DNA of 32,000 nt from Raphidiopsis brookii D9 (GCA_000175855.1 ACYB01000038.1:30001-62000); one strand, 5' to 3'. Numbered from the stretch's first letter, positions 21,927-31,421 are shown. Program-made: numbers and translations. The notes: a model not told the origin generated them from the sequence alone.

Positions 21927-22039
21927 GAGCAATCATGTTGTCGCGTCTGGCTAAGGCGTGCAAGTGTATTGAGGGATAACCGCTAGCTCCCGTTGAAGTA
22001 AAAAGTAAAGTCTAGTTTTGTCTAGGTTTTATATAGCAG
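21927..22039 (+). repeat. Copy A of a ~115-bp repeat (inverted relative to copy B)
   Basis: The reverse complement aligns by hand to 27137-27253 with 8 mismatches and one 4-nt indel. It contains the direct repeat GTCTAG-TTTT-GTCTAG. It ends 120 nt upstream of the GNAT start codon. Confidence 0.9.
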
Positions 22040-25036: not shown

Positions 25037-25638
25037 TTACTGTTTTTTATCCGGTTTGGGTTTAGAACTGGGAGAACGACGACTGTGAATCTTACGTTTT
25101 CTAATTTTGCTAGTGGGTAGTAAAGCGTGAACACCTTTTTTTTGAAATCGTTTGTGGGTAGAATTTGTCCAATCACTGAGGTAGTGACTCATCGCACCAA
25201 GTTCACAACCCACAAACCAGGCGAAAAATTCCCTGGCGTATGTAGATATATTTTGTCTCACCTTTGCCCAAATATCACCCCAATTCACAGATATGTTAGA
25301 AAAAATGGCGAGTATTAATAATAATAATCCAGTAGTAGCAGCTATAAATACCATTAAATAGACTACCCGGAGAGTAGTACCAATAATTGGTCCGTGGGAC
25401 AAAAAAGAGCGATGACGCAAACTTTGTTGATAGGGTAACCAAATCCAACGGAACCAACCCCATCGCTGGAACTGACGAGAATAAATATCCAAGTCAGGGC
25501 CAAACATCAAACCACCAAACATAAACCCCCCAGCACCACCAAGGTTATATTACCGCTACCAGTAGCAACCAAAGTTACACTAGCAACTACGGGAATAGAC
25601 CAGATGGTAATGCGGTCATGTGTTTGTCCAGAAGGCAT
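25037..25638 (-). pseudogene. DUF2227-family metal-binding membrane protein, split by a 1-nt frameshift
   Basis: A 43-codon ORF at 25638-25507 (MPSGQTHDRITIWSIPVV..LVVLGG) and the 161-aa ORF at 25522-25037 (MFGGLMFGPDLDIYSRQFQRWG..) overlap out of frame. One extra base in the A3/C6 run at 25523-25531 fuses them into ..VVLGGFMFGGLMFGPDLD... This may be a sequencing error rather than a real lesion. Confidence 0.6.
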
Positions 25639-25894: not shown

Positions 25895-25929
25895 GCAGGA
25901 GTGCCCGGTATTTCACCAGGCACTCCTGC
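25895..25929. terminator. 11-bp perfect hairpin between tRNA-Val and the convergent 167-aa gene
   Basis: GCAGGAGTGCC (25895-25905) / GGCACTCCTGC (25919-25929). An A7 run follows on the plus strand, which places T7 before the stem on the minus strand. No clean U-tract sits directly after the stem on either strand. Confidence 0.45.
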
Positions 25930-25962: not shown

Positions 25963-26466
25963 TTAATTGCCTGTTGGTGGTGGTTCTGATCCGGGTTCTT
26001 GTAATTTTTGTAGCTTCATTTCTGCTTCACTAACTTGCTTTTGTAGCAACTGTAGTTTTGCTTCAGCAATTTTTCTTTGTACTTCTAACAACTCAGTTTC
26101 TTTGTTAATCCTATTCATTCTTACCGTGTGAGAATATGTTCTTCCTGGCTGAAAAATTAAGCCTAAATAAACGGTCACATTACGGGAATCTAGAGTATTT
26201 ACACCCATTGATAAATTGAGACCAAAGTCGTTTTCTGTGTTGACTGGGGTATTAATACTATTATCTAAAGGGTAGATATTCGGCACAGTAAATTCATTAA
26301 AGTTCTGATTGGGTGAATTAAAAACATTGTTAGCATCTCCATTATTAACTGTATTAGAACTAGCACTTTGTCTAGACTGTGCTAAAACAGGATTAACTCG
26401 CAAATTTTCAGCAATGAATATTTGCATAACAGTGATAATTAATAAACATGAAATTTTTGGCAACAT
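25963..26466 (-). CDS. Secreted hypothetical protein: N-rich region plus C-terminal coiled-coil
   Basis: 167-aa ORF with a signal peptide (..NPVLA/QS) and an Asn-rich segment. A short beta-like block (FGLNLSMGVNTLDSRNVTVYLGLIFQPG) is followed by a heptad-like helix (ELLEVQRKIAEAKLQLLQKQVSEAEMKLQKLQ). It lies 36 nt downstream of the preceding gene. No recognisable domain. Confidence 0.5.
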   Translation of the reverse strand: MLPKISCLLIITVMQIFIAENLRVNPVLAQSRQSASSNTVNNGDANNVFNSPNQNFNEFTVPNIYPLDNSINTPVNTENDFGLNLSMGVNTLDSRNVTVYLGLIFQPGRTYSHTVRMNRINKETELLEVQRKIAEAKLQLLQKQVSEAEMKLQKLQEPGSEPPPTGN

Positions 26467-26502
26467 AATTTATTTCCTGATGATTCTTGACAACTACAAA
26501 AC

Positions 26503-27021
26503 TTATTCAACGTAAATAGTCAAAGCCCCCTGGATATGTCCACCACCTGAAACTTCTTGAGTAAGTTCTGTATTAGTTGCAATAAACTCAATTTTAATGT
26601 TAGAATTAGCTGGGTCATAATTACCAATTATCTCAATTGTGTTTTTGCCCTTTTGCAATAGCTTAGAAATAAGTATTTCGGTTTTATTTTCAGTGATTTT
26701 TTGTACAAATTTGTCGTTAACTTGAATATATCCCGTAAGATTAACACCTTCATCAGCAATAATTTTCAGAAAACAGTCTTGCTTTAGTTCATCCATACTT
26801 AAATCAATAATTGTTTCCTGTTTGCTTTCTTTCAACTTTGTCACCCCAACCCCAATATTACCCCTAGTTATATTACCTATAGTTGAATTTGCTTGAGCAG
26901 CATTAAAGTTATAGGATAAAACAGATATGGTAACTGCTAAGACCCAATTAGGAGCCAGGGGGATGATAGCAATGGCCAAAGCGAAATAGGAAATACAGCT
27001 AACTACTTTTTTAACATTCAT
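26503..27021 (-). CDS. Secreted/anchored hypothetical protein, beta-rich
   Basis: 172-aa ORF with an N-terminal hydrophobic region and an AQA/N site. It shows alternating beta-strand-like patterns (..LTGYIQVNDKFVQKI..TEILISKL..NTIEIIGNY..IKIEFIAT..GALTIYVE). The RBS is AAGGAAATC-ATG. No recognisable domain. Confidence 0.5.
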   Translation of the reverse strand: MNVKKVVSCISYFALAIAIIPLAPNWVLAVTISVLSYNFNAAQANSTIGNITRGNIGVGVTKLKESKQETIIDLSMDELKQDCFLKIIADEGVNLTGYIQVNDKFVQKITENKTEILISKLLQKGKNTIEIIGNYDPANSNIKIEFIATNTELTQEVSGGGHIQGALTIYVE

Positions 27022-27136
27022 GATTTCCTTATTCCCAGGAGTAAAATCAGGGGATTGCGCTTGTTTGTCGGTAAACTGGAATTTATTTAGTTTATTGACC
27101 CGAGTATGAAGGTTATGAACCGTGTAGAATGCCTTA

Positions 27137-27253
27137 CTGCTATATAAAACCTAGACAAAACTAGACTTTACTTTCTACTTCAACAGGAGCATGGGAGCGT
27201 TTATCCCTCAGTAGACTTGGACGCCTTAGCCAGACGCGATAACATGATTGCTC
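27137..27253 (-). repeat. Copy B of the ~115-bp repeat (inverted relative to copy A)
   Basis: See copy A. It lies between two minus-strand genes, and its promoter-proximal end is 115 nt upstream of the ATG at 27021. Confidence 0.9.
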
Positions 27254-27297
27254 CTTGATGCTAAATAGTGCTAGAACTAGTCACCATTAAAAAACCT

Positions 27298-27672
27298 CTA
27301 AGGATTAAAGTTTTCCGGAGTCTTCACATTCACAGGAACAATTACAGAGTTTCGAACAGTCGGCCCACCCGCTTGATTTCCATTACTTTGACGATCCCTA
27401 ATTTCCTGACGGACTCGTTGATTTTGTCTCACAGGTCCATTGTTATCAGTATTTACTTGCACTGACGTAGAAGAAGAGGTATTCCCCGTACAAGACTGTG
27501 GACCTTGCATTTCTACATTCGATGTTTGTGTCGCTGGATTTCGGGACATATTAGCTTGTATACCAATATGAGACATGACACACTGTGCTAATGCAGGTCT
27601 AGAAAAAAATGTTGCGGGGAATAGACACAAGCAAATGGTTAAACAGCTAAGCGATACAGATTTACATTTCAT
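27298..27672 (-). CDS. Small secreted N/Q/S/T/R-rich protein (paralogue family member)
   Basis: 124-aa ORF with a signal peptide (..SRPALA/QC). The mature part has ..TQTSNVEMQG..TGNTSS.. and ..VQVNTDNNGPVRQNQRVRQ.., which parallel the repeats of the 28354-28710 protein. The RBS is GAGGGGG. Confidence 0.5.
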   Translation of the reverse strand: MKCKSVSLSCLTICLCLFPATFFSRPALAQCVMSHIGIQANMSRNPATQTSNVEMQGPQSCTGNTSSSTSVQVNTDNNGPVRQNQRVRQEIRDRQSNGNQAGGPTVRNSVIVPVNVKTPENFNP

Positions 27673-27760
27673 AAAAACCCCCTCAAGGTTTTAAGTGAGT
27701 GTCCGGGTGCTTGATGAATCTGTGGTCTTTAACCTCAGATTTATTTTTTACCATTGAATA

Positions 27761-28141
27761 CTAACGACAAGACACAGAGGTTTGACTCCTTTTTGTATTA
27801 CTCCCCCTAACAGTGGTTGTTTGTGTTGTCGTTTGACTAACAACAGAGCCTGATTTTCCGCAGTTAGTTCTGATAATTGTTTTTTGGCTTTCTGATAATC
27901 TCGGAATAGGATTGTTAATTCTCCTTGAGCCATTGATATTGTTAGCTCTGGGAGTTCTATTAACAGGTGTTGACTTCCCTGGAAGATTGACATTAGTTTT
28001 GCCAGTGTCTATGTTAACATTTCCTCGAGAGTCTCTATTAATTCTTACACTCCCTGCTCTCATATCTATTTCCTCTGCTTGAGCAACAGGTAGAAATAAA
28101 GTTAATAAAATTAGCAGGGAACAAACCCGGTAAATATACAT
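27761..28141 (-). CDS. Small secreted N/R/T-rich protein (paralogue family member)
   Basis: 126-aa ORF with a signal peptide (..LPVAQA/EE). There are no aromatic residues after cleavage. The C-terminal unit VSQTTTQTTTVRGSNT matches VSQESDQTTVITGDGNT of the neighbouring protein. The RBS is GGAGGTACTCA-ATG. Confidence 0.5.
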   Translation of the reverse strand: MYIYRVCSLLILLTLFLPVAQAEEIDMRAGSVRINRDSRGNVNIDTGKTNVNLPGKSTPVNRTPRANNINGSRRINNPIPRLSESQKTIIRTNCGKSGSVVSQTTTQTTTVRGSNTKRSQTSVSCR

Positions 28142-28353
28142 TGAGTACCTCCAACAAATGCAAGACGGTTGTCAAGGGTAGCAAACAGTAACTCAGTTCC
28201 AGATGGAGTATAAACTAAGCATCTGTTTGCTGTTTGGTACTAACTATCTGTTATATAAAAGCCCAGACGTAAGCAGATTTGAGTACCTCCAGTTTCAACT
28301 GCAACCCATGTCAATCCGACAAATATGGTGCTGAAACTACGGTAAAAAAAGGA

Positions 28354-28710
28354 CTAATTGCCGTTGTTAATATTAATGTTAGTTCTTCTCCTTCGTCCAG
28401 ACTCGTTTACACCTTGGTTGTTTTGTTCAGCTCGGTTAATGGAAGTATTATTATTACCTTGCACATCGGATGTTTGATTAACACGTTGGATTGTAGCATC
28501 ATCACCATCAGTACCTCTACCCCTGCGTACACGTTGGTTATTTTGGCGGGCTTCATTCACTACAGTGTTACCATCCCCAGTAATAACTGTGGTTTGGTCG
28601 CTCTCTTGGGAGACACCCGTATTACCACTCTGAGCATGGGCAGGAATAACTTGTGAAAGACCTAGTGTTAAAAAGCCTGCAGCCAATAAATTGACGATAA
28701 ACCTGTTCAT
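28354..28710 (-). CDS. Small secreted Q/N-rich protein with two ~31-35-aa imperfect repeats
   Basis: The likely ATG is at 28710 (MNRFIVNLL..), preceded by GGAGGAG; the track start at GTG 28722 is less likely. Signal peptide is ..IPAHA/QS. The repeats SQESDQTTVITGDGNTVVNEARQNNQRV and IQRVNQTSDVQGNNNTSINRAEQNNQGV share 13 of 31 positions by hand alignment. Confidence 0.55.
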   Translation of the reverse strand: MNRFIVNLLAAGFLTLGLSQVIPAHAQSGNTGVSQESDQTTVITGDGNTVVNEARQNNQRVRRGRGTDGDDATIQRVNQTSDVQGNNNTSINRAEQNNQGVNESGRRRRTNININNGN

Positions 28711-29012
28711 AATCTCCTCCACTCGAATCTAATCTTCTGCATTCAATTCTACAAAACTAATTCGGAGTCGGCCAAGATAGATTTACATTTCTTTACAATT
28801 TCATTCAGTAGATACGCTTAATATTTGGTTGGTTGATATACGGTTGTTAAACAGTTGTTAAAAATCGCCCATTTCAATAGGATCAAGCAATACCACAGGT
28901 AGTAATATATATTAGCCATATCCATAAATATAATTGTGGGTTCACTATTGGGAGTAGTCATTTATCAGCAAACATAAATATGGGTACCTCAATTGCTAGC
29001 ACTTTAGCTTTG

Positions 29013-30188: not shown

Positions 30189-31421
30189 ATGTTAAACAAA
30201 ATACGTAATCTTTTTAGTAAATTTTTCAATAATACTGGAACGCTTAATCGAGAACCCCTAAATAAGGCAAGCTTGATAGTTATTATCATAATAGACGTTT
30301 TTATTCTAATCAATGTATTTACAGGATTGGACAGTATTGGTAGATGGCATCTTAGCCCTGACGACACTTATCCCTGTTATAACGAATGGAAAGGTTATCA
30401 AGAGCAAACCTCAGCAACTAAAGATTATGGAATAATTACTAATTCATTAATAGAAAATAATCAGCCCAACTTTAACACCCAATATAAACAGCAAGAACAA
30501 GGAAGATTGGGGAAAGTGTCAGAAATATGCCTGACCTATGGGCTATTAAAAGACAATTTAAATAGTGTTCAAAATCGGCAAGTTTTACAAACCATTAATC
30601 AGACTCAAGAAAAAATCAATGGGTTGGAGCAACAAAATGCCAACATTCGTAGTCAATACGATTCCACCCTTTTGGAAAAAATAGCTCGTCAACCTGATGG
30701 CAAGTCTATCAACCAAGTAAAAGCTGAGGAAGCTAGACAAAACCTAGATAGGAATACCAGGCAAATTGCCCAACTTAAAGAGGAAAATAAAAAGAGTAAA
30801 AATCAGCTACTCAACCAACCAGCAAGTGTCAAGTTTCTCTCGGTTTTGCAGGATAAAACCCAATTTTATAACTTAGTTAATGGCTATAAAACAGCGTCAT
30901 TTTGGTATCCCAGCATTCAAGTAACCCTGCAAGCTATATTCCTACTACCTTTAATTTTCATCGCTTCATTTATTTATGGTAAGTCACAACGCCAAGGGTA
31001 TGGATTAGTATCTCTAATTAGCTGGCATTTGCTAGTTATATTTGTGATTCCCCTAGTTATCAAAGTTTTGGAGTTTCTGCAAGTTGGTGTCGTATTTAAA
31101 TTCTTACTGGATATTATCAGTAACTTATTAGGAGGTTTACTATTCTTAGTTAGTTATGTTTATATTATAGTGATTCCCCTACTTGGTTTTGCGATTATAA
31201 AGTTGTTGCAAAGGAATGTAGTTTTTAATAGCAAAATTCAAGCTGGTAAAAGAGTACAGAACTCCCAGTGCATCAACTGTGGAAGAACCCTCAGGTCTCG
31301 TGAGGCCCATTGTCCCCATTGTGGTTATTACCAGTATGTGGAATGTCACCATTGCCATAACTTGACCTATAAGAAGTTACCCTATTGTTATCATTGTGGT
31401 ACTGAGCAAATTTCTCTATGA
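30189..31421 (+). CDS. Membrane protein with a Q/N-rich coiled-coil and a C-terminal double zinc ribbon (hypothetical)
   Basis: 410-aa ORF with one N-terminal TM helix, a ~200-aa polar/coiled-coil region, and a cluster of ~3-4 TM helices. It ends with CINC..CPHC..CHHC..CYHC. Its stop codon overlaps the next start codon (ATGA). Confidence 0.6.
   Translation: MLNKIRNLFSKFFNNTGTLNREPLNKASLIVIIIIDVFILINVFTGLDSIGRWHLSPDDTYPCYNEWKGYQEQTSATKDYGIITNSLIENNQPNFNTQYKQQEQGRLGKVSEICLTYGLLKDNLNSVQNRQVLQTINQTQEKINGLEQQNANIRSQYDSTLLEKIARQPDGKSINQVKAEEARQNLDRNTRQIAQLKEENKKSKNQLLNQPASVKFLSVLQDKTQFYNLVNGYKTASFWYPSIQVTLQAIFLLPLIFIASFIYGKSQRQGYGLVSLISWHLLVIFVIPLVIKVLEFLQVGVVFKFLLDIISNLLGGLLFLVSYVYIIVIPLLGFAIIKLLQRNVVFNSKIQAGKRVQNSQCINCGRTLRSREAHCPHCGYYQYVECHHCHNLTYKKLPYCYHCGTEQISL

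Follow-up and report, generated by a model that had tools for sequence, protein, structure and literature searches.

A conserved module of five exported orphan proteins in cyanobacteria suggests an undescribed cell-surface fibre system

A cluster of five minus-strand genes in Raphidiopsis brookii D9, located on a 32,000-nucleotide stretch of DNA (GCA_000175855.1 ACYB01000038.1:30001-62000, hereafter the window), was found to be a new, conserved five-gene module made up of five orphan protein families. No earlier description of this module was found in the literature. Numbered P1 to P5 in the direction from tRNA-Val to cofG, the genes encode small proteins with predicted signal peptides, among them a protein with two Q/N-rich repeats (P5) and a partner that appears to combine one P5-like unit with a β-hairpin and a coiled coil (P1). 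This repeat design suggests, without proving, an undescribed cell-surface fibre system. A preliminary description of the window, made from the sequence alone, had proposed an extracellular fibre-type system comparable to curli, Fap and TasA; the co-occurrence of the genes as a unit with a repeat subunit and a P1 partner speaks for that proposal, whereas no homology to curli, Fap or TasA was found.

To establish how widely the genes travel together, one genome per GTDB species was scanned with a P1 motif, yielding 67 loci, 59 of which were evaluable. Iterated hidden Markov models (HMMs) applied to all open reading frames (ORFs) of these loci recovered a layout of constant order on one strand, [P5]n-P4-P3-P2-P1, with P5 in 39/59 evaluable loci, P3 in 38/59, P2 in 37/59 and P4 in 27/59, and with all four of them present in 24/59. 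By tblastn, homologues in the same order were found directly upstream of P1 for P2 (31 loci), P3 (26), P4 (9) and P5 (17). Order and strand were kept in approximately 40 loci from several cyanobacterial orders, so that the co-occurrence which the preliminary description had proposed to look for in Nostocales was found there and beyond, in groups including Nostocales, Coleofasciculaceae and Chroococcales. Carriers comprised Nodularia, Anabaena/Dolichospermum/Aphanizomenon, Fischerella, Westiellopsis, Calothrix, Rivularia and Brunnivagina, as well as Caldora/Symploca, Aerosakkonema, Phormidium, Cyanosarcina, Aphanothece, Prochloron and Altericista. The genes that flank the module in the window (mazG, cofG and two genes for membrane proteins of 161 and 410 amino acids) were matched by tblastn in none of the 67 loci, and no other widely conserved neighbour family was found in these loci beyond lineage-specific synteny. 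Since order and strand were kept in some 40 loci while the flanks of the window were common to none, the comparison supports the view that the five genes form one functional unit. P1 occurred without the other four genes in 18/59 loci, mostly in Chamaesiphon and Synechococcales or as second copies.

The closest relative of the D9 module was a metagenomic contig (L068) carrying the same five genes at identical lengths. Ratios of nonsynonymous to synonymous change (pN/pS) against this contig were 0.24-0.48 per gene and 0.35 overall, and because of this overall value the module is judged to be under purifying selection. Identical lengths in the nearest relative, the low pN/pS of each gene and homologues in dozens of genomes together indicate that all five ORFs are real genes, beyond chance.

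A single apparent occurrence outside cyanobacteria, in a metagenome-assembled genome labelled as uncultured Chromatiaceae (L048, contig CAYOXI010000065.1), was rejected. This contig (55.6% GC) encoded phycobilisome-linker-like and CpcT-like ORFs, and the phycobilisome-linker-like ORFs make it all but certain that a cyanobacterial contig was misbinned. A P3-P2-P1 trio was located on the 108-kb plasmid pSTA7437.02 of Stanieria cyanosphaera PCC 7437 (L069, NC_019749.1 48536-49907), downstream of a gene for a von Willebrand factor A (vWA)-domain protein; all three genes were annotated as hypothetical, and no obvious P5 or P4 was seen there.

In the window, ORF calls on the minus strand gave precursors of 167 amino acids for P1 (25963-26466), 172 for P2 (26503-27021), 124 for P3 (27298-27672), 126 for P4 (27761-28141) and 118 for P5 (28354-28710), in agreement with the five consecutive ORFs originally reported, the last at about 118 amino acids. 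The open frame of P5 itself spans 28354-28722; its start is most likely the ATG at 28710, because a GGAGGAG ribosome-binding site (RBS) lies 4 nt before this codon and the gene of the closest relative was called at 118 amino acids. Reading the sequence directly confirmed a purine-rich RBS for each gene, a gap of 36 nt between P2 and P1, and tRNA-Val and cofG as flanks, with mazG a further flanking gene. The translations likewise agreed with the leaders first proposed, which end in VLA|Q, AQA|N, ALA|Q, AQA|E and AHA|Q from P1 to P5. Each leader consisted of a basic n-region, a hydrophobic h-region of 12-18 residues and a small-x-small cleavage site, with no lipobox, and these features were also kept in the family alignments; all five are accordingly predicted to be Sec-type (type I) signal peptides. 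None of the five proteins matched Pfam, NCBIfam, PADLOC or PHROGs, and family members likewise gave nothing above threshold, consistent with the earlier failure to assign any of them to a family. PDB sequence searches with the P2 and P1 profiles returned nothing or, for P1, coiled-coil noise only.

P5 (28354-28710, minus strand) comprises a Sec leader ending in AHA|Q, two Q/N-rich repeats of approximately 33 amino acids and an Arg-rich tail. The repeat turns in the window read G-D-G-N and G-N-N-N, and the mature protein had an internal repeat score of 71, against 32.8±6.0 in shuffled sequences. The same design was evident across the family, for which statistics were computed on the mature sequences of 92 proteins against shuffle expectation: the internal-repeat z had a median of 9.9 and exceeded 3 in 97% of proteins, and the patterns G.GN (82 observed vs 16.8 expected, z=16.9), GN.{7}Q (66 vs 16.4, z=12.9) and Q.{5}G.G (59 vs 12.7) were all strongly over-represented. 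A positional profile placed Q symmetrically around the turn at -13, -9, +8 and +12, from which the unit can be written as Q-x3-Q-x5-G-x-G-N-x7-Q-x3-Q, a pattern that we infer to be a symmetric strand-turn-strand. N, Q, G, S and T made up 57% of the family composition. Tandem P5 arrays were common, with up to seven copies in Calothrix NIES-4101 and Fischerella PCC 9431, and benthic sheathed genera, among them Calothrix, Rivularia and Fischerella, had the highest copy numbers. The two Q/N-rich strand-turn-strand repeats, the G-x-G-N turn and the arrays of up to seven copies make P5 the candidate for a major polymerizing subunit. The family consisted of two BLAST-level subfamilies, which hhalign aligned in register across 81 columns (probability 90, with a noisy shuffle control). 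Of the relatives recovered with a fused P5+P2 profile, most belonged to P2 and only two were close to P5. In Phormidium tanganyikae, two paralogues in the P5 position (L018, 4645-5115 and 5208-5705) had three repeats each and, unlike the remaining P5 family, fitted the curli Q-x-G-x-G-N spacing by eye, though they still did not match Pfam Curlin_rpt.

P1 (25963-26466, minus strand) was the most widespread and most conserved of the five, with 188 homologues in a set of 5.8 billion proteins and 19 invariant residues in the family; among 1.84 billion cluster representatives it had 31 matches, none of them a true fusion protein. Behind its leader (VLA|Q), the protein is built of a Q/N-rich segment, an N-T-E-N-D motif, a β-hairpin (strands 81-90 and 97-106) and a coiled-coil helix of 48 residues (109-156). 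The Asn-rich segment and heptad coiled coil of the preliminary description were thus both present, though the conserved hairpin between them had been overlooked. This amphipathic, nearly invariant hairpin (F-G-L-N-L-S-V-G-V-N / T-L-D-S-S-N / V-T-V-Y-L-G-L-I-F-Q) showed strict hydrophobic/polar alternation, and the helix carried a hydrophobic stripe at its a, d and g positions. In the AlphaFold2 (AF2) model the helix had a predicted local distance difference test (pLDDT) score above 87 and the hairpin one of approximately 60, while the Q/N-rich segment was disordered and residues 2-21 were helical. A low score for the hairpin would be expected if it needs partner chains. No PDB fold matched the P1 model in Foldseek. 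As for a possible outer-membrane barrel, strand alternation and length fit, there is one hairpin per chain, and 1/74 family members matched OMP_b-brl weakly (E 0.012).

Profile comparison linked P1 to P5. The P5 profile aligned to P1 with an hhalign probability of 83, pairwise Smith-Waterman comparison gave a z of 3.2, and the P5 unit scored 14.4 in hhalign against the P1 N-terminus, compared to 4.8±0.9 for column shuffles (approximately 10 standard deviations above). These comparisons support the presence of one P5-like unit in the N-terminal segment of P1, which we consider a candidate outer-membrane anchor, nucleator or pore. In GenBank the D9 protein (100% identical) is named "ATP synthase B chain (Subunit I)", a wrong name that stems from the coiled coil, and one P1 homologue from the Joint Genome Institute (JGI) is labelled "opacity protein-like surface antigen".

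In P2 (26503-27021, minus strand), the leader and a variable linker precede a nine-strand β-sandwich at the C-terminus, which AF2 modelled with a pLDDT of approximately 90 across residues 67-172. The domain is therefore β-rich, as had been described, and with approximately 105 amino acids shorter than the 150 or so first given. Foldseek returned no significant PDB fold match to the model (E ≥ 0.03). Sub-threshold matches to Pfam Glyco_hydro_2_N, the sugar-binding domain of glycoside hydrolase family 2 (GH2), were found in 4/24 P2 members (best 8.1e-5, 23.1 bits vs a cut-off of 28), and other members had sub-threshold matches to carbohydrate-binding module (CBM)-like domains, CE2_N and CBM9. 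A CBM-like fold for the sandwich is a reasonable but unproven assignment.

P3 (27298-27672, minus strand), with a leader ending in ALA|Q, is characterized in its family by a Cys pair (C31/C61), a C-T-G-N motif and a C-terminal V-x-V-P-V-N-V-x-T-P; mean column identity in the alignment was 38%, and C31, C61 and Q83 were invariant. P4 (27761-28141, minus strand) follows its leader (AQA|E) with an N-terminal motif, [DE]-I-D-x-Q-x-G-N-x-R-...-G-x-[IV]-x-[IV], then a strongly basic linker and a C-terminal Cys...Cys, and has a net charge of +12 in the window and a median of +9 in the family. Cys pairs were present in 93% of P4, 90% of P3 and 67% of P5 proteins, compared to 1% of P1 and 5% of P2; in P3, P4 and P5 these conserved pairs would fit export to an oxidizing compartment. 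The preliminary description had taken P3, P4 and P5 for N/Q/T/S/R-rich paralogues. Their compositions are indeed alike (42-48% N/Q/S/T), but this kinship did not survive comparison of the window proteins: BLASTP gave E ≥ 0.07, and Smith-Waterman scores were no better than those of composition-preserving shuffles. A P5-P4 profile match (probability 93) was discarded as well, as it covered mostly the signal peptide and a short N-terminal stretch, and the P5 unit against the mature P4 N-terminus gave a z of approximately 1. On sequence comparison, P3, P4 and P5 are three separate conserved families. Long-form P2 proteins, which occur chiefly where a locus lacks a separate P4, did resemble P4 in their N-terminus: against the N-terminal motif of P4 they scored 15.7 in hhalign (vs 7.1±1.9 for column shuffles), which hints at domain exchange between P4 and P2.

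In layout the module is closest to curli and Fap, and in biological setting to the EbfG proteins, yet it is assigned to none of these systems. In curlin, the strand-arc-strand repeat carries N and Q where its strands end (PMC10192328), and the minimal curli repeat is X6-Q-X-G-X2-N-X10 (PMC3521004). As predicted from sequence, the module shares with curli Sec-exported subunits rich in Q, N, G and S, imperfect strand-turn-strand repeats, a turn of G-x-G-N type and N or Q at strand ends, together with a separate protein bearing a subunit-like unit (CsgB/CsgF in curli, the P1 N-terminus here), co-encoded small periplasmic accessory proteins and, by analogy only, a small β-sandwich accessory (CsgC in curli, P2 here). 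Membership in curli was nevertheless rejected. Neither P5 of the window nor any of 27 P5-family members matched PF07012 Curlin_rpt at E ≤ 1, hhalign of the P5 profile against Escherichia coli CsgA aligned 5 columns with a probability of 0.85%, and the pattern Q.G..N was not enriched in the 92 mature P5 sequences (14 vs 16.8±3.8 in shuffles). No Pfam match to CsgG, CsgE or CsgF was found in P1-P4 or their family members, nor did the 67 loci hold any other conserved neighbour family, and no CsgD homologue accompanies P1-P5. The P5 unit also differs in length (approximately 26-33 amino acids vs approximately 23 in curli), in its number per subunit (two) and in the tandem arrangement of its genes.

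Like Fap, the module appears to place several small secreted proteins in one operon, among them a putative major subunit that bears repeats, a subunit that would be minor or act as nucleator, and a candidate outer-membrane part with a coiled coil (FapF in Fap). None of P1-P5 matched a Fap protein in Pfam or NCBIfam, so that membership was rejected here too, and the module contains no FapD-like peptidase. FapF is a monomeric 12-strand barrel of approximately 400 amino acids that trimerizes via an N-terminal coiled coil, whereas P1 has one hairpin per chain. Among cyanobacterial systems, the EbfG proteins are exported by a double-glycine leader and a peptidase-type exporter. EbfG1-4 of Synechococcus elongatus PCC 7942 are small, secreted, tandem-encoded matrix proteins, of which EbfG1-3 form amyloid fibrils and EbfG4 is found at the cell surface as well as in the matrix (PMC9981879). 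P5 resembles them in being cyanobacterial, small, secreted and tandem-encoded; the module is set apart from EbfG by its Sec leaders and by partners like P1, P2 or P3, which are not described for EbfG. The cyanobacterial tubular (CT) pilus of Microcystis, a surface filament, is built from MrpC, a pilin with two hairpins and a helix-turn-helix (HTH), encoded in a cluster with an O-GlcNAc transferase and an FkbM methyltransferase that also occurs in bloom-forming Nostocales (PMC12397347). It is likewise restricted to cyanobacteria, and likewise joins β-hairpins and C-terminal helices in a small protein. We rejected the MrpC cluster on gene content, with no glycosyltransferase or methyltransferase conserved at our loci, and P1 matched no solved chain. 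Few-strand oligomeric β-barrels such as trimeric autotransporter anchors, TolC and α-haemolysin-type stems are similar to P1, as an analogy only, in having amphipathic strands of approximately 10 residues adjoining a coiled coil that could set the oligomer. They differ from P1 in domain order (hairpin first and then a C-terminal helix in P1) and in its one hairpin per chain, and gave no sequence or fold match.

Our preferred reading, put forward tentatively as possible rather than probable, is that the module is Sec-exported, specific to cyanobacteria, and assembles a cross-β (amyloid-like) fibre or matrix at the cell surface or in the envelope, without homology to curli and with P1 as its anchor or nucleator. 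A cross-β assembly is suggested by the combination of Sec-type precursors, gene order, an amplified two-arch P5, a P5-like unit on the hairpin and coiled-coil protein P1, the P2 sandwich and Cys residues capable of forming disulfides. In such a system, the five precursors, whose leaders are read directly from the translations, would cross the inner membrane via Sec and have these leaders cleaved, an export step in keeping with the Cys pairs. Each P5 unit would then fold as a strand-turn-strand arch, and the arches would stack within and between subunits, with tandem P5 paralogues in other species supplying more or varied subunits. P1 would sit in the outer membrane, where its amphipathic hairpin and C-terminal coiled coil might drive formation of an oligomer and the P5-like unit at the mature N-terminus might template or anchor P5 polymerization, analogous to CsgB/CsgF. 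Because the module holds no further conserved channel gene, the P1 oligomer is possibly also the outer-membrane conduit. P2 may tie the assembly to polysaccharide, whether sheath, exopolysaccharide (EPS) or lipopolysaccharide (LPS), via its CBM-like sandwich, although this is the weakly supported step, and strongly basic P4 together with a putatively disulfide-bonded P3 could serve as adaptors or minor subunits. A more specific version, which we regard as rather unlikely in full, is a cyanobacteria-specific functional-amyloid machinery independent of curli and Fap, in which the two-repeat P5 polymerizes on, and perhaps exits through, a new kind of outer-membrane oligomer with one β-hairpin and one coiled coil in each P1 protomer, and CBM-like P2 couples the fibre to the polysaccharide sheath.

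Several observations weigh against a P1-anchored fibre. AF2 confidence in the P1 hairpin was low, and an outer-membrane barrel with two strands per protomer joined to a coiled coil is without close solved precedent. The solitary P1 genes mean that P1 function is not strictly dependent on nearby P2-P5. The β-arch fold of P5, P4 and P3 is drawn purely from sequence pattern, and Q/N-rich low-complexity proteins may be intrinsically disordered instead of amyloid. The link between the two P5 subfamilies depends on a profile comparison whose shuffle control was noisy, and the CBM-like assignment of P2 fell below Pfam thresholds. Some of the same observations would suit the main rival, a somewhat unlikely one in our estimate, in which the module is a non-fibre periplasmic or outer-membrane envelope complex with P1 as a coiled-coil tether or scaffold embedded in the outer membrane and the Q/N-rich proteins as disordered, hydrophilic fillers or protectants (against desiccation, osmotic stress or cold) or as peptidoglycan- or polysaccharide-associated factors. 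Such a complex would agree with P1 being found on its own, with disorder in the Q/N-rich part of its model, with the fit of cationic P4 and CBM-like P2 to anionic envelope polymers, and with the lack of a dedicated secretion channel conserved at the loci. However, a disordered filler would need no precise two-fold repeat, G-x-G-N turn and symmetric Q across 92 proteins, and homotypic assembly is what the tandem P5 arrays and the single P5-like unit of P1 point to.

Tandem arrays of diverged small secreted paralogues with positive net charge and disulfides could also be read as antimicrobial, allelopathic or signalling peptides (P5, P4 and P3), with P1 and P2 as export, immunity or receptor parts; the divergent XRE-type regulator beside the arrays in nine loci and the partial module copy on a plasmid would fit as well. 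We consider this improbable, as no leader-processing peptidase, ABC exporter, modification enzyme or recognizable immunity gene was found at any locus, the leaders are of ordinary Sec type, P5 of the window has a net charge of just +1 and nothing matched in PADLOC or PHROGs, while conservation of the five-family order over deep cyanobacterial divergence would be unusual for bacteriocin loci. Also hard to sustain, and quite improbable in our view, is a surface structure other than amyloid and anchored by P1, namely a layer, an adhesin or a coat that interacts with minerals or ice, which could present a β-solenoid-like ligand-binding surface for, say, Ca2+/carbonate nucleation or adhesion. The regular T/N/Q-rich arches do resemble ice-binding and adhesin β-solenoids, which are listed as non-polymerizing solenoids (PMC10192328), invariant acidic and amide residues of P1 (N-T-E-N-D, D93) could bind cations, and P5 copies are most numerous in benthic sheathed genera. 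A solenoid surface standing by itself would nevertheless need more than two repeats per protein, no homology supports the idea, and planktonic bloom formers with reduced genomes, that of the window among them, have retained the module too. That the genes are unrelated exported neighbours or partly spurious ORFs, as the lack of database annotations, the low-complexity composition and two mobile-element insertions in the spacers might suggest, is effectively refuted by order and strand kept among unrelated flanks, by identical lengths and pN/pS below 0.5 against the nearest relative, and by invariant Cys and motif positions.

If the fibre reading is true, the module would represent a third non-homologous route to extracellular cross-β fibres in Gram-negative bacteria, after curli and Fap, and the first such fibre system with a defined multi-gene module in cyanobacteria. 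Since it is present in bloom formers (Raphidiopsis, Dolichospermum, Aphanizomenon and Nodularia) and expanded in the sheathed benthic genera Calothrix, Rivularia and Fischerella, it could be relevant to how cells aggregate, how the sheath is organized and how biofilms or mats develop. In that case P1 would be a new minimal design for an outer-membrane anchor or pore, and the very short, two-unit P5 would make an appealing scaffold in engineered living materials. Should the fibre reading prove wrong, the five orphan families still gain a genomic association, clear sequence hallmarks and testable predictions of localization.

Two spacers of the D9 module contained insertions that were absent from the closest relative. 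The one in the P3-P2 spacer (27105-27254) holds copy B of the 115-bp repeat (27137-27253, minus strand), which the preliminary description had correctly placed inside the cluster. This copy and the other, at 21927-22039 on the plus strand, were approximately 92% identical, both intergenic and in opposite orientation, with no Rfam match. As it is absent from the P3-P2 spacer of the closest relative, copy B is judged to be a recent insertion of a small mobile repeat, similar to a miniature inverted-repeat transposable element (MITE), and was no component of the ancestral module. The second insertion, of approximately 126 nt, lies in the P5-P4 spacer (28141-28290) between two direct copies of a duplicated 12-nt sequence, GGAGGTACTCAA (28279-28290 and 28141-28152). 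Of these, the proximal one comprises the P4 RBS and the A of the P4 ATG, so that the duplication preserves the P4 RBS. This insertion may separate P5 transcriptionally from P4-P1. On the contig of the closest relative, positions 1-109 corresponded to 26491-26598 of the window, meaning that the junction of the P2 end and P1 start is repeated upstream of its P5 gene, which could be a tandem module duplication or an assembly artefact.

In nine loci from heterocytous and related lineages (L026, L034, L035, L037, L039, L042, L043, L045 and L065), a divergently oriented XRE-type HTH gene of approximately 115 amino acids lay upstream of the P5 arrays and is a candidate regulator of the module; it was absent from the window. 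Of the two flanking membrane proteins, neither of which had an NCBIfam match or was linked to the module in other genomes, the 161-amino-acid protein is encoded at 25037-25522 on the minus strand, and the 410-amino-acid protein, with a Cys-rich, zinc-ribbon-like C-terminal tail, at 30189-31421 on the plus strand. A promoter-like site on the minus strand (28746-28775, TTGGCC-18-TAGAAT) was situated 36 nt upstream of the P5 start and is a low-confidence candidate, because the count of such sites in the region equals shuffle expectation. An Rfam scan of the region returned tRNA-Val alone. Between the P1 stop and the convergent tRNA-Val, a perfect 16-bp GC-rich stem (25895-25929, minus strand) forms a hairpin with a minimum free energy of -34.2 kcal/mol (z -5.5 vs shuffles). 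Though it has no canonical U-tract and was missed by a consensus terminator scan, this hairpin likely marks the end of the transcription unit as a bidirectional terminator.

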